From: Candidatus Woesebacteria bacterium | Lineage (GTDB): Bacteria > Patescibacteriota > Saccharimonadia > Saccharimonadales > EFPC-124 | NCBI GenBank assembly: GCA_050115675.1 | Contig: JASFQB010000005.1 | Coordinates: forward strand, 22,556 to 86,555 | Length of the DNA: 64,000 bases | Direction of reading: 5' to 3' | Shown here: positions 27,165-62,400 of the stretch, one piece after another | How the letters are laid out: each line of letters begins with the position of its first letter | Numbering within the stretch: the first letter of the stretch is position 1 | Notes under the pieces: model-generated | Told to the model about the DNA's origin: nothing | Seen by the model: only the letters and a program-made list of their open reading frames with translations | The model's database searches: none | Program-made: the position numbers and the translations under genes

Positions 27165-28165
27165 TATTTCCCTGATCATCATTTTTGAGCTTGAACAGCT
27201 CGTTTAACTTCGGTGGTTCCACCGAAGTTTTGTTTGCAGAAAGTAAGTCGCCATAGTTTGGTGCACTGTTGAATAACAGGCCAAAGAAGTTGGCTTTTTG
27301 CACTGGATCAATCTGTTTTACGAGCAAATCTTCTAGATGCTGCAATTAATTACCGTTTCTGAGCTAACGAGCTTGATCTTATCAACCAATGCTTTCGCCT
27401 GCGCTCGCAGTGTGTTTATATGCGTTTCAATGCGCTGCTCTTCGTCTACGACTGATTGGTTTCGTTGTGTCCAGACGGTTTCCACGGCCGCTAGGAGCCC
27501 GTCGATTCGTGCCTCTTCGTATTTGACCCGGTGTACGAAATCGGCAATGGTCGTTTCAAAATCTTTTTTAGGCACGCGGAAGCAGTGGCCACGCTTGTTG
27601 TAGTGGTAGGCCGGGTAAAGTTTGCCCATCTTGCCGCGTGTAGAGCTGTCAAAGAGTGGTTTTTCGCACTCGGGACGCACAGACGATCTTATGGTATGAA
27701 AACTCGGCGTTCCGCGTACTTTTGGGAGTTGCGTAGCGCTCCTCAGTCGGCCTTTCGTACAGAAATATAGCCCCATCTTTCTCGCCGATCACGAGCTTGC
27801 CTTTATTGGCGGCATTGAATAGCTCGTAAGAAATTAGGCCAGCGAATTGCCCTCTAACAGCCTTGTTGTCTGTTTACTTTTCGCAAATAATGCCGGCGTA
27901 TATTGGATTTGCGATGTATCGCCAGAACGTTTTAATGTCAAGCTTCTTGCCGCCTCGTTTGCCAATAGCCTGAGTACGCTCCTGTGTACTCCTGAGCGTT
28001 TGCGTGCGTGACTTATAGCCAAGCTTATTTATCTCGTCTACGATTTGTCGGTCGTCTAAAGTCCTTCTGGCGCGTAACTCAAACATTTTGGTTATGAATT
28101 CGGATTCGGTGGGGCACGGTCGTAGCGCTAACTGTTCCCCATGCTGCGTATCTGTGCAGTTAAAG
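27165..28165 (-). pseudogene. Large serine recombinase remnant: catalytic N-domain missing, at least 3 frame disruptions
   Basis: Recombinase-domain piece 'EFITKMFELRARRTLDDRQIVDEINKLGYKS...FWRYIANPIYAGIICEK*' (28086-27874). A shifted piece 'LISYELFNAANKGKL'. A zinc-ribbon and coiled-coil piece 'CEKPLFDSSTRGKMGKLYPAYHYNKRGHCFRVPK...RIETHINTLRAQAKALVDKIK' (27776-27333). A further-shifted C-terminal piece (27345-27165) that runs into the tRNA. Confidence 0.7.
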
Positions 28166-28236
28166 CTTGTCGCTAAAAAATAGCAAGATATCCAAACAGG
28201 AATCCTCCGTAAGGGAGACTTAAAAGATTAGTATCT

Positions 28237-29835
28237 CTATCCAACCTCTGCCATCTCGACAGTCGCCACCCACCGGATGGTTTTCGCGGCTTCGCCGGTG
28301 ACAGTGATTGCGAGTCTGTTGTTGGTGCTGTCGGCGGTGACAGCGACGGTCCAGGTGGTGGCTCCGGCGTCGCACATGGTGGTGGTGCCGGTGCCGGTAG
28401 GGGTGCCGAGGAGTCTGCAGTTGCCGGTAGCGTCGCGGGTGATGGCGGCGTGGATGGGTGCCCATGCGGCGGCGGTGCCGGAGACGTCGGTGCGGTGAGC
28501 GGCGACGCGGATGGTGCATGCCATGGTGCGGGTTGCTGCGATGGTGATGTAGCCGCTGGTGGCGCCGTCGGCGGATAGCTCGGTGCCGGTGGCGTCGGTG
28601 GTGGTGATGCGGAGGACATCGACGACGTGTCGGGCGTCACCGGCGGTGGTGAAGTGCCCGTTCGAGGTGGCGTGTTGGCCGTATCTGTCTGCTTTTGCGT
28701 AGCTGCCGAGTGCGGTCGATGAGTCGCCGGACGCGGAGGCAGAGTTTCCGAGTGCGGTTGCGTAGTCGGCTGATGCGGTGGCCGATCTGCCTACGGCGGT
28801 CGCGGAGTCGCTGGCGGAGGCTGCGTATCCGACGGCAATCGAGGAGGAGCCGGATGCGGAGGCCGACCGGCCGACGGCGGTCGCGACAGTGCCGGACGCG
28901 GAGGCTGATTGTCCGACGGCAGTCGCATAGGAGCCAGCGGAGGCCGACCGGCCGACGGCTGTGGCGTAGTTGCCGGACGCGGAGGCTGATTGTCCGACGG
29001 CAGTCGCATAGGAGCCAGCGGAGGCCGACCGGCCGAGGGCGGTCGCGGATGTATTTATCGCAGAAGACAAAACCCCCACCGCCACAGAATTATTCCCACT
29101 AGCCACCGACGAAACCCCCAATGCCAAAGCGTCCGTCCCGGTAGCCGAACCGCCCGCACCAGGCGGCAAAGCCCAAGTACTATCGCCGCGCAAAAACGTA
29201 GTTCCGTCTGCCGTGCCCGTTCCAAGCCTGGCGGTATTCATCGTGCCAGATGTAATGTCCGCCGTACTGTGACCGTGATCTCCTGCGGCGGCCTGTTGCG
29301 CGCCCGTGCCCAAAGTACGAAGCGACGGCGTAGCCGTTGTGCCGTCTACCGAACCAGCTGCCATGTTGGCAGAAGTTAAACCCGTAAGAGCATCCGAACC
29401 TCCTGGCGCATGACTAGACGCGTGGGCCGTGGGAGTCCTGGCGTCCGAAAGTCGTGCATCATCGCCCTGGGCTGCACTGCCAGACGTAGTGCCATAAACA
29501 ACCGCCAATGTTACATCCGAATTCAGCGCTCCGCCACCCGTCAAACCAGTGCCAGCGACAACTTGTCTGGTGGACTGCACTGCGCCAGTTATGCGACTGT
29601 CATCTCCGGCGGCAACCGTGCCGCTTGTACTGCCCACGTTTTTAGTTGCAGAATCGCCCAAATCTGTAACATCCGAAGCTGTATGATGATGAATTACGTC
29701 TGCCTTAGAAGAGAGTGCACTAGATTTTAGAGAGCCGTCAGAATTATGCGTAACCAGTAAAAAATCGTTAAGGATATCACCCCAAAGACCGTCATCAGAA
29801 CCGGAAACTGGAAGCCTGGACACTCTGCCCCCCAA
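28237..29835 (-). CDS. Tail-fibre / trimeric-adhesin-like protein, compositionally chimeric (GC-rich body)
   Basis: 532-aa ORF; the likely true start is GTG 29823, giving 'MSRLPVSGSDDGLWGDILNDFLLVTHNSDGSLK'. Fibre motifs 'AAGDDSRITGA', 'AQGDDARLSDA', 'AAGDHGHSTADITSG', 'FLRGDSTWALP'. YadA-head/Hep_Hag-like repeats 'SASASGNYATAVGRSASAGSYATAVGQ'. High GC3. Confidence 0.75.
   Translation of the reverse strand: MGGRVSRLPVSGSDDGLWGDILNDFLLVTHNSDGSLKSSALSSKADVIHHHTASDVTDLGDSATKNVGSTSGTVAAGDDSRITGAVQSTRQVVAGTGLTGGGALNSDVTLAVVYGTTSGSAAQGDDARLSDARTPTAHASSHAPGGSDALTGLTSANMAAGSVDGTTATPSLRTLGTGAQQAAAGDHGHSTADITSGTMNTARLGTGTADGTTFLRGDSTWALPPGAGGSATGTDALALGVSSVASGNNSVAVGVLSSAINTSATALGRSASAGSYATAVGQSASASGNYATAVGRSASAGSYATAVGQSASASGTVATAVGRSASASGSSSIAVGYAASASDSATAVGRSATASADYATALGNSASASGDSSTALGSYAKADRYGQHATSNGHFTTAGDARHVVDVLRITTTDATGTELSADGATSGYITIAATRTMACTIRVAAHRTDVSGTAAAWAPIHAAITRDATGNCRLLGTPTGTGTTTMCDAGATTWTVAVTADSTNNRLAITVTGEAAKTIRWVATVEMAEVG
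28891..29036. repeat. Intragenic tandem duplication, 81-bp period (27 codons)
   Basis: 65-nt string gccggacgcggaggctgattgtccgacggcagtcgcataggagccagcggaggccgaccggccga occurs identically at 28891-28955 and 28972-29036. Confidence 0.9.
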
Positions 29836-29969
29836 TTAGTGTTTTATGTTACTTTTGATTATAACTACATCCCTCACAAAACAAAACCCCTGCAGGGTCG
29901 AGCGTTGCAAAGTAGTCGTCTAGAGTTTCGGCGCGGCGGATCTGTACAACTTTTTGTTATGATAAATAT

Positions 29970-30299
29970 ATGGATTTTGATTTACTGCAAAAAAGGGCTT
30001 TAGAAATTCGAGACAAATACGACAGGCTAAACCAAGAAAAGCGTGGGGTTGTATGGAACGAGCAACAGCTTATGGCTGGTTTTGTTGGAGATGTCGGAGA
30101 TCTCTCAAAAATCGTTATGGCAAAGCACGGGCTGCGTGCTATGGACAACGTTGACGAAAGGCTTGCTCACGAGCTTAGCGACTGTCTTTGGTCTGTGTTG
30201 GTTATGGCTGGTAAATATAATATTAATTTGTCAGAGGAATTTATTAAAACCATGGACGAATTAGACGAGCGAATCGATTTTGATATGTCTAAAACTTAA
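29970..30299 (+). CDS. MazG-like nucleotide pyrophosphohydrolase (small all-alpha NTP-PPase)
   Basis: 109 aa; 'AGFVGDVGDLSKIV' and 'LAHELSDCLWSVLVMAGKYNINLSEEFIKTMDEL' resemble the EExxE/D helical MazG-type core. Confidence 0.6.
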   Translation: MDFDLLQKRALEIRDKYDRLNQEKRGVVWNEQQLMAGFVGDVGDLSKIVMAKHGLRAMDNVDERLAHELSDCLWSVLVMAGKYNINLSEEFIKTMDELDERIDFDMSKT

Positions 30300-42644: not shown

Positions 42645-43036
42645 GCAGATTGCTGAACAGTCACTTGGTCGCAAGGCTAAGAGGAAAGTCCGGGCAGCAA
42701 AGAGCAAGACAGTCGCTAACCGCGACCGGAGGCAACTCTAGGGAAAGTGCCACAGAAACGAAACCGCATATTTATATGTAAGGGTGAAAGGAGTGGGCCT
42801 GCCTTTGTGCAGGATAGTCCTAAGGTTTATACTTGGGACGAATGTAAGAGCCCACAGCTGGGTATGGTGACATGCTCAGGAGGTAAACCCTGTCTGCTGC
42901 AAGGAGGTCTGTTTTCGTCTTTATGGCGTAGCTGCTCGCTAAACAGGCCGATTAACCGCTAGACTATGCAAGCAATTGCTTTTAGCTAGATAGATGACTG
43001 TTCTCGACAGAACCCGGCTTATAGGTAGTCTGCAAC
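42645..43036 (+). ncRNA. rnpB: RNase P RNA (bacterial type A)
   Basis: Universal 'GAGGAAAGTCCGGGC' (42681-42695), 'ACAGAACCCGGCTTATAGG' near the 3' end, and a P1 stem gcagattgct/aggtagtctgc. TATAAT at 42633-42638. Confidence 0.9.
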
Positions 43037-43037
43037 T

Positions 43038-46300: not shown

Positions 46301-46697
46301 GGGGCTGACTTAAGCTTTGACGTTTGAACATTTACATACTGCTTTGCAAACCGAATTACGCTACGTTATGGCGTTTAAACAACTGCAAAATCTTTTGCAA
46401 ACGTAAAACAAACTTTGGCAAGCCTTTTCCAGGCCCCTCAGTTTGCTTTTCAAGCCGTTTAATTACACAGCGGCCATCGTCTAGCTAGGGGCTACGCTTA
46501 GCTTTACGGTGTTATTTATTGTAGCTTGAGCTTCTTTGGCGTTTTGCAGGCCAGAATAAGCTGACATTTTTCTGTAAAGACTTTTGCTATTTTTGTTGAG
46601 TTTTTTAGGCTAAAGTCAAAACTAAGATTCAGCTATGTTTGTAGACGAGTAGTGTGTAGTCAGACGGACTGGGGTGCGATTCCCCACAGCTCCACCA
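46301..46697 (+). ncRNA. ssrA: tmRNA (SsrA)
   Basis: 5' GGGGCTG pairs with 3' CAGCTCC-A-CCA (G3:U70 alanine identity). T-arm-like ggggtgcgattcccc. Internal tag ORF ends at TAA 46460-46462. Confidence 0.9.
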
Positions 46698-47499
46698 AAA
46701 GTGACCTAGCTTTAAAAAACTGGGTCTTTTTTGACACTGTTTTTTAGCAAAAAGAAAACAACGGCCTGCGAGTAGCCGTTGTTATTGTTTGTCGTATATT
46801 TTTTGTTTTTGAGCACTTTTTTTATTCAAGTGCTACCCCTATAATAGTAGGCATTTTGAAGGCTGTCAACACGTTTTTGCTTAGAAAATTTATATGCATG
46901 TGGATAAATAATAAGGACGGCTCTTTGCAACGTATAAAGCTCTCGTTTATATAAAAAACATTGTGATCAAAAGTAATGCAGTAATGTAAAATGTTGCTGG
47001 GCTGTTTTTTAAAAAATAATATAAAAATAGTAAAAGTAGTTTGTGTAAAAAGTAAGTTATAAATTTATAGCAATATAGCTAACATGCCAAGTGGGTTGTA
47101 GATCCATTTTTGCATGAATGCTATCGCGCGTGGTTGACTCCAGGATGCTGGGGCTAGTTGGTGATACGTTGAAAAATTTTAAAAGTTATTTTTAGAGTAT
47201 TTTTGTTGCTGTGGCTATCGAAGATCGTGCTACATTTTTGTGCAGATTTTTGTAAAAAATCGAGCCTAATATTTTTTGTAAACTCCAAAATCAAGTAAAA
47301 TATCCTGTGCATCAAAAACATATATTTTTTACAACAGCTGGTAAAAAAGTACGGAATAACAGGGTAGCACAGTAAAAAATACATCAGTATGAGTAGTTGT
47401 CGTATTGACATATTTATGGCGGCATGTTAAGTTGTAAGTAAGCTTTTAGAAAAATAAAAACAATTTCATAAAAACAAAAAAAGCTTGTACTTTAGAAGG

Positions 47500-47705
47500 C
47501 CTTCATCGTCTGGCGGAAGCACTGATAACTAATGAAATAATTGGTTATCAGTGTCCCGTCAGACGACGGGCAGCCAGCACTCCATTGAGCATTGCTCTGG
47601 ATTGTGCGGCATTTTATCGTCGCTCTCTTTGAAGGAGAGCGGTCAGTCGCTCGAAGCGGGAACTGCCATATAATTTGAATCAAAGGGCGGATTTCCCGCT
47701 CGAGC
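47500..47705 (+). ncRNA. Candidate structured RNA / cis-regulatory leader (unassigned class)
   Basis: Five consecutive strong hairpins: 47519-47554 (13 bp), 47555-47570, 47573-47610 (15 bp), 47621-47641 (7 bp), 47649-47705 (18 bp). They sit in a GC-richer patch inside an AT-rich spacer, ending about 20 nt before the next gene. Strand and function are unproven. Confidence 0.35.
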
Positions 47706-47725
47706 TCAAAAAACTCTTTAGTGAG

Positions 47726-48145
47726 ATGGGGAATGGCGCTATAGTTGTAGTTATGGTTAATATGCAAATTGTGCGTTCTTTTAGGCTTTATGCTACGTTT
47801 GGATTGCCTGTATTAATGGTGGTTCTATTGTTCTTTGCACTGAGTGTAACAAGTCCACTTTCGGCAGGGCCGGCGGGGATTTTGTTAGTTTTTGCTTTGA
47901 TGTACTTGGTGGCTTTGAGTCTGCTTTTTGCAGCGCTGGCATTGGTCTTGGTTGTTGTCGAAAAAGTAGCTAATCGTACACAGACGATAGGCAAGAAGTT
48001 GTACTATATAGCAGCGATTGTTGCGATGGCGCCAATTTTTATCTTGGCGCTAAATACAATTGGGCAATTGGATATCAAAGATTTTATTCTTGTGCTGATT
48101 CTTGAGCTTATGGCGTGTTTTTATGTTGCACGTAGGATGAAATAG
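47726..48145 (+). CDS. Small polytopic membrane protein (4 predicted TM helices)
   Basis: Hydrophobic ORF. The start is uncertain (ATG 47726 or 47762). The track start 47675 lies inside the upstream hairpin and is unlikely. Confidence 0.5.
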   Translation: MGNGAIVVVMVNMQIVRSFRLYATFGLPVLMVVLLFFALSVTSPLSAGPAGILLVFALMYLVALSLLFAALALVLVVVEKVANRTQTIGKKLYYIAAIVAMAPIFILALNTIGQLDIKDFILVLILELMACFYVARRMK

Positions 48146-48186: not shown

Positions 48187-48627
48187 ATGGAGCCAAGATT
48201 ACCAACGCCACACCTATCTCCTGAGGCAGGTGCGTATAATCCAGAAACGCCAAAGGGGCAAGAAAGAGGGACTCAATTAAATAAAATTGAGACTGTTGGC
48301 AGTGCGGAAAAAAGCACGAATCAGGAAGCTCGCGAGCTAGACCCTAGTCAGGCGATGTCGGTGGCCTTGCCTTCGGCGCAGGCAATGAGTCCAATAGGTT
48401 CTGGTTCGAGTGCTTCGTCAAAGCGAAGTCCAAAAAATAACCTTAAGGACGTACCTGTAAGTGCAAGTGAGGATGATGTCATTGAAAAAGAATGGGTTAA
48501 TAAGGCCAAGCAGATAGTTAAAAACACAAAAAACGACCCCTATATGCAGGGGCTTGAGGTCAGTAAATTACAAGCTGATTATTTAAAAAAGCGTCATGGC
48601 ATAGATGTAAAGGTATCTGGTGGGTAG
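48187..48627 (+). CDS. Hypothetical protein, disordered N-terminal two-thirds
   Basis: 146 aa with a P/S/E/Q-rich N-terminus and a short helical C-terminus. Adjoins or overlaps the ATPase gene start. Confidence 0.45.
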   Translation: MEPRLPTPHLSPEAGAYNPETPKGQERGTQLNKIETVGSAEKSTNQEARELDPSQAMSVALPSAQAMSPIGSGSSASSKRSPKNNLKDVPVSASEDDVIEKEWVNKAKQIVKNTKNDPYMQGLEVSKLQADYLKKRHGIDVKVSGG

Positions 48628-51600
48628 TATGGAGATCTTTATCGTTGGCTTATTGTTGGGTGTGGTGATTCTTATATTTGCGGGATATTTTATGTATTGG
48701 CAGTATCGAAAAATCCTGCGTGAGGCAAAAAATTACGAGCGTGGATTAAAAATGATACCTTTGGTCATTCATTTGCCGCCATCTAGCGATGATGTTGAGG
48801 TTGGTGTTCGTGACACGAGAGATGTTGTAGAAGAGACGATATCCCAAGCTCAGATAATGTATAACATAATTGCAAGCACCGCCACAAAGGGATTTAAGAG
48901 TCGTATTTACGGACAGCGCCATTTGGCGTTTGAGGTGGTTGCGAGCCATGGTTTAATCCATTACTATGTCGTGGTTCCGTTGGTCCTTATGGACGTAGTG
49001 AAGCAAGCGGTGATTGCAGCTTATCCTAATGCACGCCTAGAGGAGGCAGAGGAGTCAAATATATTTAGCCGTGCTGGAAAGATTAGCGGCACTATTGGCG
49101 GCGAGCTGGCTCTAAAAAGAGAGTTCAGTTATCCAATTGCAACCTTTGAGGATAGTAAGCGTGATGCGATGCAAGCAATCTTGAATGCTTTTTCGGTCCT
49201 TTCTCGTGACGATGGCGCGGCGATTCAGCTATTGATCCGCCCTGCAAAAGAAAAATGGACAAAGACTTCTGTATCGATGGCAAACCGAATTCGTAAAGAA
49301 AAAGGCATCAAGGGGCATAGTGGAATTATGTCTATCAAAGAGGTTGCCGAAGCTCTTTGGAAGCCTCTTGCTGCCACAGAGGCTAAGCCCGAAGATAAGC
49401 AACTAACAACCCTTGAGCAATCTACGGTTGATGCTCTAGAAGAGAAGACGAGGCATCCCGGTTACGAAGTTCTAATTCGTGTTATGGCTTCATCTAACAC
49501 CGCAGAGCGTTCGCAGATAATTTTAAAAAACATTGTTGCGGCATTTGCGCTTTTTGATGCACCGAGTAAAAACGGCTTTAAATTTACGATGACAAAAAAT
49601 ATTGAAGCTTTTGTTACATCATTTATATTTAGATTTTTCCCTCAGGAGGCTGACGGGAACATCTTAAATAGTGTAGAATTGTCAACGATTCTTCACTTTC
49701 CAGACCAAAGGAACACCCCGACGTCACAATTACAACGACAGGCTTCAAAGCAAGTTGATGGCCCTGTACATATGAGTGATCAAGGTGTACTTTTGGGGTA
49801 TAACGTTTACCGTGGTGTGAAAAAGGAAATACGGCTAGACGCTGTAGACAGGCGCAGGCATGTTTATATCATAGGTCAGACTGGAACTGGCAAGTCAGGA
49901 CTGTTAGAGAACCTGGCACTGCAAGACATGCTTGACGGCAAAGGTTTTGCGTTTATCGATCCACATGGTGACTCTGCGGAACGTTTGCTGGGCATGGTTC
50001 CTAGAGAGCGAGTAGAGGATGTTATTTATTTCTCTCCTGGTGATATGCAGCAGCCTCTAGGATTGAATCTATTCGAATATGAAAGTGAAGAACAGAAAGA
50101 TTTTTTGATTCAGGAGGCTATTGCAATGCTATACCGTCTGTACGACCCAGGTCGCACTGGTATAGTTGGTCCGCGCTATGAGCATTGGTTTAGAAACGCT
50201 GCCTTAACAATAATGAGCGACCCAAATGGTTGTTCGTTTATTGATATCCCACAGGTGTTTAACGATAATGATTTTGCGAAGTCAAAGCTCAAATATGTAA
50301 AAGACCAGACCGTGCTTGATTTTTGGAATAAAGAGATGGCTCAGACAAGCGATTATCATAAGAGTGAAGTTTTGGGGTGGTTTGTGAGTAAATTTGGTGC
50401 GTTTTTGTCTAACGAGATGATGCGCAATATTATTGGTCAAACAAAGAGTGGCTTTAATTTACGAGAAGTTATGGATAAGAAGAAGATTCTTTTAGTCAAC
50501 TTATCGCAAGGGCGCACAGGCGAACTTAACTCTCAGCTTTTGGGCATGATTTTTGTTATGAAGTTTCAAGCTGCAGCAATGGGGCGCGCGAATGTTCCCG
50601 AGGATCAAAGGGAAGACTTTACTTTGTACGTTGATGAGTTTCAGAACTACGCTACCGATTCCTTTGAGGCTATACTGTCTCAGGCGCGTAAATATCGCTT
50701 AAGTTTAATATTGGCAAACCAATTTATGACGCAGCTTAACGATAAGGTCCGAGAGGCTGTAATTGGTAATGTGGGCACCGTAGTAGCTGGGCGTATTGGT
50801 ACAACTGATGCAGAATTGATGGTTAAGAAATTTAGGCCGATTTTTGACGAAGAGGACTTAACTAAATTGCCAAATTTCGAGTCTGTGGCGTCGGTAATGA
50901 TAAATAATGTACCTTCCACACCGTTTAGCATGTCTCTTATACCGCCACTGGGTAGGCCAAGTGACCAGCTTGCTGATGCTTTAAAAAAGCTTTCTGCTGC
51001 AAAATATGGCAGGCCAAGAACAGCAGTAGAGCAGGAGATTTTTAGTCGATTGCGGTCAGGTTCGACCGAACCTATGCCCGTTGGGGAGGCGGCTGCTGGA
51101 ACTGAAGAAAAAAAACCATCCTCGTTTTTAGATGAGTGGCTGGCTAAGAGAAAGCAAAAAATATCCAATGGAGTCAAAACAGCAAAGGTGGCTCAACCAG
51201 AGCTAAAAGATGCTGAGGGGTCTCCCGCAAGGACGCCACATTCAGGTGAAGCTTCGTTGCTAGGCAACGCGTTGCCGAATAATGTGAGTGGCAAGACTCC
51301 CCTGGGCCAGGATTCCGAAACAGTAAAAGATCATACAGTTGTCAAAAAAACGGACGATAGATTACGAAAGCTCCAATCTGCAAATATTGGCAGTAGTGTT
51401 GTTATTAAACCAACAAAAGACTATCCTGCAGGTAGTTTTGAATCCAATCTTGATGATGGTAAAAGACTGGAAGAAGAGGTTGAAAAAGCTAGAAGTACAG
51501 ATGTGATGAACAACGAAAATCCAAAAGTTTCAAACCAAGTACAGCCTAATGCAACAGTCCAGCAAACCGCTCAGCCCGAGCAGTTGGATGAAATTTATAT

Positions 51601-51658
51601 TGATATTCATGGTGATTTGCACCATGGAGCAGAATTGCCGTTAAATAAAAAAAGCTAG
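48620..51658 (+). CDS. Membrane-anchored VirD4/TraD/TraG-like (type IV coupling protein family) P-loop ATPase with long disordered tail
   Basis: N-terminal TM helix. Walker A 'GQTGTGKSG', 'FIDPHGD', Walker B 'LYVDEFQNY', 'ARKYRLSLILANQFMTQL' (TraG-D_C-like). About 230-aa low-complexity C-terminus. The start may be ATG 48629. Confidence 0.6.
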   Translation: MGSMEIFIVGLLLGVVILIFAGYFMYWQYRKILREAKNYERGLKMIPLVIHLPPSSDDVEVGVRDTRDVVEETISQAQIMYNIIASTATKGFKSRIYGQRHLAFEVVASHGLIHYYVVVPLVLMDVVKQAVIAAYPNARLEEAEESNIFSRAGKISGTIGGELALKREFSYPIATFEDSKRDAMQAILNAFSVLSRDDGAAIQLLIRPAKEKWTKTSVSMANRIRKEKGIKGHSGIMSIKEVAEALWKPLAATEAKPEDKQLTTLEQSTVDALEEKTRHPGYEVLIRVMASSNTAERSQIILKNIVAAFALFDAPSKNGFKFTMTKNIEAFVTSFIFRFFPQEADGNILNSVELSTILHFPDQRNTPTSQLQRQASKQVDGPVHMSDQGVLLGYNVYRGVKKEIRLDAVDRRRHVYIIGQTGTGKSGLLENLALQDMLDGKGFAFIDPHGDSAERLLGMVPRERVEDVIYFSPGDMQQPLGLNLFEYESEEQKDFLIQEAIAMLYRLYDPGRTGIVGPRYEHWFRNAALTIMSDPNGCSFIDIPQVFNDNDFAKSKLKYVKDQTVLDFWNKEMAQTSDYHKSEVLGWFVSKFGAFLSNEMMRNIIGQTKSGFNLREVMDKKKILLVNLSQGRTGELNSQLLGMIFVMKFQAAAMGRANVPEDQREDFTLYVDEFQNYATDSFEAILSQARKYRLSLILANQFMTQLNDKVREAVIGNVGTVVAGRIGTTDAELMVKKFRPIFDEEDLTKLPNFESVASVMINNVPSTPFSMSLIPPLGRPSDQLADALKKLSAAKYGRPRTAVEQEIFSRLRSGSTEPMPVGEAAAGTEEKKPSSFLDEWLAKRKQKISNGVKTAKVAQPELKDAEGSPARTPHSGEASLLGNALPNNVSGKTPLGQDSETVKDHTVVKKTDDRLRKLQSANIGSSVVIKPTKDYPAGSFESNLDDGKRLEEEVEKARSTDVMNNENPKVSNQVQPNATVQQTAQPEQLDEIYIDIHGDLHHGAELPLNKKS

Positions 51659-59317: not shown

Positions 59318-62400
<3,083 letters not shown>

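Follow-up and report, generated by a model that had tools for sequence, protein, structure and literature searches.

What is the GC-rich run of strong hairpins that stands in front of a small membrane-protein gene in a chromosome segment of a Saccharimonadales bacterium: the regulatory leader of that gene, or an RNA in its own right? The run lies in the 64,000-nucleotide (nt) stretch of DNA analysed here (contig JASFQB010000005.1, positions 22,556 to 86,555; referred to as the window, whose own numbering is used throughout), upstream of a gene encoding a four-transmembrane (4-TM) protein. In a preliminary description it was placed at 47500-47705 and regarded as either an unassigned structured RNA or a riboswitch-like leader. 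The present analysis revealed that the cluster constitutes the 3′ four-fifths of a predicted RNA of about 270 nt. This RNA represents a previously undescribed family that, in the genomes sampled, is confined to Saccharimonadia (TM7, Patescibacteria); no account of it was found in literature searches.

All five hairpins were found where they had been described, within an island of elevated GC content (0.50-0.56 over 47500-47699) in an AT-rich spacer (0.27-0.30 upstream and 0.36-0.38 downstream). In silico folding of the plus strand of region 47490-47715 gave a minimum free energy (MFE) of −107.7 kcal/mol, compared with −65.1 ± 4.5 kcal/mol for dinucleotide shuffles (z = −9.4), and none of the 200 shuffled sequences folded as well. 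The minus strand of the same region folded less stably (−96.5 kcal/mol, z = −8.3). The span originally assigned to the element proved to be real but incomplete, since the unit starts approximately 60 nt further upstream, at about position 47439; for the full unit (47440-47722) the z-score of folding was −10.1. The helices are referred to below as H0, P1, P3, P4 and P5 (Table 1), the last three corresponding to the third, fourth and fifth of the described hairpins (iii, iv and v).

The distribution of the element was examined in 80 species-level genome loci, obtained via the neighbouring gene for an ATPase resembling type IV coupling proteins (T4CP-like), and in closer relatives (L085, L081 and L082-L084) obtained via protein look-ups; individual loci are cited by such L numbers. 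Iterated nhmmer searches detected the element in 74 of the 80 loci, in every case some 1 kb before the ATPase gene and in the same orientation. A covariance model added one further locus (L016), and four others end short upstream, which brings the tally to 75 of 76 evaluable Saccharimonadales loci. Homologs of the 4-TM gene come after the RNA in 72 of 74 loci, and homologs of a gene for a 146-amino-acid (146-aa) protein in 74 of 74, usually 35-45 nt after P5. The position of the RNA is fixed, 20-100 nt upstream of the cluster formed by the 4-TM, 146-aa and T4CP-like ATPase genes. A covariance model search indicated that the element is present as a single copy in the window, and a pattern scan of metagenomes returned mostly members of the L007-type subclade rather than closer relatives of the window. 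Across the family the length of the RNA varies from approximately 265 to 580 nt, with large insertions located in the apex of P1, the middle region and P5.

Two covariance models were constructed: R1 (P4 and P5), built from 18 short-form sequences, and R2 (P1), built from 21 sequences. R1 produced one match in the window (47607-47713, 82 bits) and plus-strand matches in 51 of the 80 genome loci. In the R1 alignment, 93.8% of the cells of P4 and P5 are standard pairs (81.9% after shuffling) and double changes occur in 14 of 21 pairs; the separate values are 94.1% and 3 of 7 pairs for P4, and 93.6% and 11 of 14 pairs for P5. The number of double-change cells was 123, compared to 30 in the shuffled alignment, and slid partners paired in 38-47% of cells. 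R2 scored 43.5 bits on the plus strand of the window and 31.6 bits on the minus strand. Its seed alignment contains changes on both sides in 14 of 16 pairs, and among 63 distinct plus-strand matches 94.6% of the cells are paired (80.6% shuffled), with double changes in all 16 pairs and 151 double-change cells (41 shuffled). The element is therefore conserved in relatives in the manner of a structured RNA, with compensatory changes that exceed the shuffled controls in P1, P4 and P5 and the slid controls in P4 and P5.

These alignments also revealed on which strand the selection acts. In the 63 P1 sequences GU/UG cells outnumber AC/CA cells (68 versus 23), and the mirror hit of R2 on the minus strand is always 10-20 bits below that on the plus strand. 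The excess of G-U over A-C, together with the higher plus-strand scores, indicates selection on the plus-strand RNA and not on the DNA or the opposite strand; a minus-strand RNA and a DNA cruciform were rejected on these grounds. A protein-coding function was also rejected: small open reading frames (ORFs) are not preserved, and close relatives differ by 1-, 2- and 4-nt indels.

Upstream of the RNA, the arrangement TTGACN-17-TGcTAnnnT, followed after 6 nt by AAGCUUUU, was found in 52 of 75 homologous loci by a regular-expression search, and further cases are visible by eye. As far as can be judged from such signals, the promoter belongs to the RNA itself and keeps a constant spacing to a conserved 5′ end, as would be expected of a stand-alone gene, and in the window transcription is predicted to start at about 47438-47440. 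The first hairpin, H0, was identified in approximately 45 of 51 relatives. Its compensatory variants include GGUUUU/AAAACC, UGUUUUAA/UUAAAACA and UAAGUUAUUGAU/GUCAGUGACUUG. The single-stranded motif that follows it is degenerate in the window (GUACUUU at the position of GCACCUU).

Two observations concern repetition of this motif. In a long-form clade (L045, L044, L052, L040, L038, L064 and others), an insertion in the apex of P1 carries CUUGCA...GCACGCACCUUU, a second copy of the GCACCUU motif found after the 5′ hairpin. Moreover, the 5′ motif (G)CACCUUAG (47487-47499) and the post-P5 sequence CUCUUUAGUGAG (47712-47729) form direct repeats in the window. In L081 the equivalents of both repeats change in parallel (UUAG to UUGU), which may be due to chance or to both contacting the same partner.

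Hairpin i of the preliminary description was confirmed as the apical stem of P1. The pairing between 47504-47512 and 47560-47568, which had been proposed as an alternative conformation, turned out to be part of the same structure: in the MFE fold both form one continuous hairpin. In the family as a whole, P1 has the core UUUGRCGGA...UCCGCCAAA, above which an internal loop leads to a second stem. Compensatory changes occur in the outer stem, UCGUCUG/CAGACGA of the window being replaced by CCGUCUG/CGGACGG in L085 and by GUUAUUUG/CAAUUAAC in L081. Hairpin ii, which had been set against this stem as the second state of a switch, is formable because the outer P1 stem repeats the CGUC element. It can be drawn in seven of the seven closest relatives, and L001 has a 16-bp version of it. 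However, enforcing hairpin ii costs 5-16 kcal/mol relative to the extended P1, the MFE structure in every case (−30.8 versus −41.4 kcal/mol for the window segment), and hairpin ii is missing in other clades (e.g. in the L011 type, and where P1 reads UUUGGUAGUG...CACUACCAAA). Given these energetics and the restriction to the clade of the window, the switch is a local possibility and not a feature of the family, and as a family-wide mechanism it was rejected.

The neighbouring P3 is compensated in L081 (GCAC/GUGC changed to GCUA/UAGU, and UCCA/UGGA to UCCG/CGGU) and shows a wobble change in L085. Outside the clade of the window, its position is occupied by unrelated hairpins and large insertions.

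P4 is represented in relatives by variants such as GCCCUC/GAGGGC, CCCGAG/CUCGG and CCCGGG/CCCGG, and is followed across the homologs by a near-invariant single-stranded core, AGCGGUCAGU. Many relatives contain the exact complement of this core, ACUGACCG, a few nucleotides 5′ of P1, which creates a putative long-range helix closing a multi-branch domain. Pairing of at least 8 contiguous base pairs (bp) was found in 17 of 62 sequences, compared to 2.6% of shuffled controls, and the extensions of the helix covary (e.g. GUACUGGCC/GGUCAGUAC). On these comparisons the pairing is considered real in several clades and absent in the window, where ACUGACCG is missing and the best match to the core is 5 bp long.

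In P5, conservation extends from the structure to the sequence of the apical half (CACRCGCY...RGCGGAU), and in many relatives an extra helix is inserted in this hairpin. At least five U residues occur among the first 9 nt after P5 in 44 of 73 relatives. The positions of all the described features are summarized in Table 1.

Table 1. Predicted features of the RNA locus and the adjacent protein-coding genes (coordinates of the window).
Feature	Position	Strand	Characteristics
Promoter	47405-47433	+	−35 TTGACA (47405-47410), 17-nt spacer ending TGT, −10 TAAGTT (47428-47433); near-consensus, sigma-70-type
RNA gene	47439-47705	+	about 267 nt
Hairpin H0	47439-47487	+	UAAGCUUUU (47439-47447) / AAAAGCUUG (47479-47487), 31-nt A/C-rich loop; MFE structure
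Single-stranded motif	47487-47495	+	GUACUUUAG; family consensus GCACCUU(A)ACAAUU; directly 3′ of H0
P1	47499-47571	+	long irregular hairpin; outer stem GCCU/GGGC and UCGUCUGGCGG/CCGUCAGACGA; apical stem 47519-47554 (hairpin i)
Hairpin ii	47555-47570	+	CCCGUC-AGAC-GACGGG; alternative to outer part of P1
P3 (hairpin iii)	47573-47610	+	variable; MFE structure
P4 (hairpin iv)	47621-47641	+	CGCUCUC/GAGAGCG
Core	47638-47648	+	AGCGGUCAGUC, nearly invariant; unpaired part 47642-47648
P5 (hairpin v)	47649-47705	+	bulged A, asymmetric internal loop (3′ side AU of GGCGGAUUU), 18-nt AU-rich terminal loop; MFE structure
Tail	47706-47722	+	UCAAAAAACUCUUUAGU; no U tract directly after P5
−10-like box and start codon of 4-TM gene	47740-47755	+	TATAGT 47740-47745, ATG 47753
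4-TM protein gene	47753-48145	+	130 aa; ATG 47753; neighbour of the RNA, not part of it
146-aa protein gene	48187-48627		lysine-rich product
T4CP-like ATPase gene	48620-51658		1012 aa; DUF8128/VirD4-like, coupling-protein-like

The identity of the RNA was examined with Rfam 15 (4227 models). At gathering thresholds the search of the whole window returned nothing in 47400-47750; at E ≤ 10, microRNA hairpin noise alone was obtained (at most 22 bits, compared to thresholds of 80-140). Rfam analysis of the distant homolog L049 likewise returned nothing relevant. The suggestion of a structured RNA outside the known families is thus borne out, as is the absence of matches to riboswitch and signal recognition particle (SRP) motifs noted in the preliminary description. 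One other candidate structured RNA specific for TM7/Saccharibacteria, the lysM-TM7 motif, has an Rfam model; its gene context is different, and no Rfam family matched the element described here. It was the sole TM7-specific motif found in the literature, where it was reported as a short candidate 5′ untranslated region element of lysM genes (Weinberg et al. 2017, PMC5737381).

How might such an RNA act? With roughly even confidence, we favour the reading that it is a structured non-coding RNA (ncRNA) acting as a folded particle, probably a protein-binding scaffold rather than a ligand-sensing leader. The conserved nucleotides are spread over internal loops and junctions, large insertions are tolerated, the last hairpin is conserved in sequence and the promoter is strong; it is on account of these features that a scaffold is preferred, and in them the RNA appears to resemble protein-binding and scaffold RNAs (OLE, raiA, 6S, SRP and RNase P) rather than riboswitch aptamers or seed-type small RNAs (sRNAs). 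The promoter would start the RNA, and P5 with its U tract would end the transcript in most species, with part of the transcription reading through into the operon in some clades, possibly including that of the window. Transfer-messenger RNA (tmRNA) is encoded upstream in 13 of 13 loci scanned, at a distance of 0.8 to 2.2 kb. The linkage to the 4-TM/146-aa/ATPase cluster is much tighter, which suggests a partner or a role of the RNA within this downstream membrane-protein operon.

A comparable arrangement is that of the OLE RNA/OapA system of Bacillota (RF01071). OLE is also a lineage-restricted, multi-helix ncRNA whose gene directly precedes a 4-TM gene in the same orientation, and its conserved internal loops likewise hint at protein binding. 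In contrast, no RF01071 match was obtained, the RNA described here is 265-580 nt long (OLE, approximately 610 nt), the phylum is different and the 4-TM protein has no detectable relation to any family. Direct OLE-style contact between RNA and protein is pure conjecture here, the gene arrangement being what the two systems share. It is more specific still, and in our view improbable, that the RNA is a subunit of a Saccharibacteria-specific membrane ribonucleoprotein containing the 4-TM and/or 146-aa protein and working with the DUF8128/VirD4-like ATPase. If true, this would be an OLE/OapA-like particle of independent origin in ultra-small epibiotic bacteria, possibly tied to the translocation of macromolecules at the host interface. 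The raiA motif RNA, ROOL and GOLLD are likewise promoter-driven, highly structured, covarying, abundant-looking RNAs of unknown function, whose size varies through modular insertions. They differ in that they show no homology to the present RNA, which is limited to Saccharimonadia and has a fixed synteny beside the 4-TM/T4CP-like ATPase operon.

Several observations weigh against a stand-alone scaffold RNA. In locus L029 (Patescibacteria bacterium SMAG_U12867, 2400-3180), tmRNA is followed by a small conserved spacer element and then directly by the 4-TM gene, so that the large RNA is absent although the operon is intact. In the window and its two closest relatives, L085 and L081, which share the post-P5 tail UCAAAAAACUCUUU, P5 is not followed by a U tract (one U among the first 9 nt, UCAAAAAAC, in the window, and likewise in the other two), and a scan for consensus terminators detected none on the plus strand at the window P5. 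The ends of the RNA are predictions from promoter and terminator signals. The 4-TM protein could be assigned to no Pfam or NCBIfam family, its AlphaFold model (predicted local distance difference test score 73) matched no fold in the PDB, and no protein partner of the RNA was identified. Finally, in L010, L022, L015 and L009 a Shine-Dalgarno sequence is located right after P5, leaving no space for a promoter (in L010 and L022, GAGGUG and AUG follow P5 directly). This would make the RNA physically the 5′ part of the operon transcript in those clades, where co-transcription with the downstream operon is likely.

The loci with a Shine-Dalgarno sequence and start codon after P5 speak for another explanation, in which the element is a cis-regulatory leader of the operon (a riboswitch, or a protein- or RNA-responsive attenuator) and P5 a conditional terminator under the control of the upstream domains. 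The constant location of the RNA directly before this operon and in its orientation, the U-rich tail in the 44 loci mentioned above and the capacity of the window's clade to form hairpin ii from the 3′ strand of P1, with observed substitutions that keep both pairings possible, point in the same direction. We consider such a leader possible but on the unlikely side. No conserved pairing competing with P5 was found, and the apex of P5, unlike that of typical expression platforms, is conserved in sequence; the combination of aptamer and expression platform that defines a riboswitch was therefore not recognized. Nor do the downstream genes point to a candidate ligand. In addition, hairpin ii is energetically inferior to P1 and missing in other clades, a two-fold variation in length is not typical of an aptamer, L029 keeps the operon without the RNA, and there is no U tract at the window P5.

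In many loci, the region between P5 and the 4-TM gene also speaks against a leader. In 34 of 71 loci, the window among them, the start codon of the 4-TM gene is preceded at a distance of 3-16 nt by the exact sequence TATAGT, often as TGnTATAGT, and no Shine-Dalgarno sequence is found in these cases; the 4-TM homologs start at the methionine of the ATG at 47753. These sequences suggest that the 4-TM gene has a separate, nearly leaderless mRNA. Together with the RNA's own promoter, the conserved P5, the clade-restricted switch and the length variation, this makes the initial assignment as a riboswitch-like leader of the 4-TM gene doubtful. The data agree with an RNA gene at the head of the operon, followed by a terminator that varies in strength and, in many cases, by a second promoter.

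On a separate note, in many genomes TGnTATAGT lies only 6-11 nt before the 4-TM ATG, without a Shine-Dalgarno sequence, which suggests that leaderless mRNAs may be used in the Saccharimonadales lineage.

Among known leaders, those of fluoride (crcB, RF01734) and guanidine/SMR genes are similar in being GC-rich structured elements before a small 4-TM gene, and P1 of the window (GGCG...GAUGCUCCGCC) is faintly reminiscent of the crcB motif. However, no RF01734 match was obtained at E ≤ 10, the downstream protein is not CrcB or SMR (no CRCB Pfam match), the size of the element is 3-8 times that of those aptamers, the hairpin at its end has a conserved sequence and the gene is often separated from it by a −10 box. 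The fluoride-like resemblance was rejected, since it is contradicted by the covarying pairings of P1 and no model matched; the same applies to an SRP-like resemblance in P5.

It is also conceivable, although unlikely, that the RNA is a trans-acting base-pairing sRNA, whose seeds GCACCUU(A)ACAAUU or GGUCAGU would pair with mRNAs. Shine-Dalgarno-like AAGGUG is a possible target because CACCUU resembles the anti-Shine-Dalgarno end of 16S ribosomal RNA (rRNA), which in the window reads ...UUACCUCCUUUCU. The strong promoter of its own, the protective 5′ hairpin, the terminator-like 3′ hairpin and the conserved unpaired motifs are compatible with such a function. However, the RNA is far larger and more structured than usual seed-type sRNAs, with conservation distributed over helices and internal loops, the motif is degenerate in the window, and the L010 and L022 types possess neither H0 nor the GCACCUU motif. 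No target was identified; by eye, no more than about 5 AU-rich bp can be formed with the 4-TM mRNA around its start.

Near-universal presence in the class, a single copy and strong promotion would suit a highly diverged housekeeping RNA (6S or SRP) missed by the Rfam models in Patescibacteria, and the window, which contains RNase P RNA, tmRNA and rRNAs, gave no SRP or 6S match. We nevertheless regard this explanation as very unlikely. No SRP or 6S model matched at E ≤ 10 with relaxed filters, and L029 lacks the RNA at this locus. 6S RNA (ssrS), which is often co-transcribed with the downstream gene, is similar in its strong sigma-70 promoter, length of a few hundred nt, possible downstream co-transcription and near-universality in the lineage; it differs in forming a rod with a closing stem and central bubble, whereas the 5′ and 3′ ends of the RNA studied here do not pair with each other beyond two 3-bp contacts, the 5′ end forming hairpin H0, and RF00013 was not matched. 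As regards SRP RNA, the window sequence GGUCAG...GGGAACUGCC is locally similar to SRP helix 8 (GGUCAGG...GGAAGCAGCC), but neither RF00169 nor RF01854 was matched, and the GGUCAG...CUGCC stretch is the 5′ strand of P5, fixed by covariation; the resemblance is lost in relatives.

A DNA-level element (a replication origin, an origin of transfer or other transfer signal, a palindromic repeat or miniature inverted-repeat transposable element, or an integration remnant at tmRNA) is hardly credible. In favour of it, the element sits in an AT-rich spacer with one perfect DnaA box (46899-46907), has tmRNA before it and a coupling-protein-like gene after it, and folds well on both strands. Against it, GC skew is positive over the whole window without a switch, DnaA boxes are at chance level (18 versus 16.5 expected), G-U exceeds A-C three-fold with plus-strand scores always above those of the minus strand, and the element is single-copy, free of repeats, preceded by a conserved promoter and without blastn matches in phage records. 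Viral contigs yielded 22 exact 16-mer matches, about the estimated chance number, and none of them matches either covariance model.

Saccharibacteria and other Patescibacteria, a lineage that accounts for a large share of uncultured bacterial diversity, have tiny genomes and almost no described regulatory or structural RNAs. The RNA described here, which we interpret as a folded, probably protein-binding particle, adds a new family to the orphan structured ncRNAs of bacteria, in a lineage from which hardly any RNAs have been characterised. Its near-universal presence, its promoter, its covariation and its place beside a conserved operon whose function is unknown together suggest a cellular component not described before. 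The RNA lends itself to being added to Rfam as a new family, from which the annotation of Patescibacteria genomes would benefit. According to a 2022 preprint on the TM7x transcriptome, this strain has no validated small RNAs; cultured Saccharibacteria can now be studied with genetic tools (Wang et al. 2023, PMC10633639).

The region of the window belongs to a Saccharimonadales (TM7, Patescibacteria) chromosome, in which Rfam models identified RNase P RNA (42645-43037), tmRNA (46301-46697), tRNAs and an rRNA operon. A comM-like gene (minus strand) and tmRNA (plus strand) are followed by the AT-rich spacer of about 0.75 kb, the RNA element and the 4-TM, 146-aa and ATPase genes; gyrB, gyrA, a PAP2-like gene and the rRNA operon come after the ATPase gene. 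Relatives of the T4CP-like ATPase at 60-80% identity are all from Saccharimonadales. A distant t4cp homolog was non-essential in S. epibionticum and may have been exapted, according to a study of type IV secretion in Patescibacteria (PMC12102498).

NCBI proteins identical to the products of 48620-51658 and 47753-48145 are labelled "Candidatus Woesebacteria bacterium", and the close relatives of the locus all belong to Saccharimonadales. The metagenome-assembled genome that contains the window is probably misclassified.

A second conserved non-coding unit was observed on the minus strand of the spacer after tmRNA (46745-46869). It has a near-consensus promoter (TTGACA, 46869-46864; TATTAT, 46846-46841) and a predicted RNA of approximately 90 nt, which begins with a hairpin, continues as an A/C-rich linker (UCAAAAACAAAAAA...) and closes with a terminator (46783-46757 and a U tract). 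The z-score of folding was −4.4. Matches were obtained with nhmmer in approximately 63 of the 80 related loci, the unit being inverted in L022, and no Rfam family was matched.

Two further observations were made elsewhere in the window. The GC content reaches a peak of 58% in 28001-30000, compared to about 43% elsewhere, and an ORF on the minus strand (28237-29835, 532 aa) contains YadA-head adhesin repeats (Pfam PF05658, E = 4e-20); its product may be a horizontally acquired or repeat-rich surface protein. The 23S rRNA match (59321-62399) is 3079 nt long, compared to 2925 positions of the model, which corresponds to insertions of about 150 nt; rRNA insertions are often reported for Patescibacteria.

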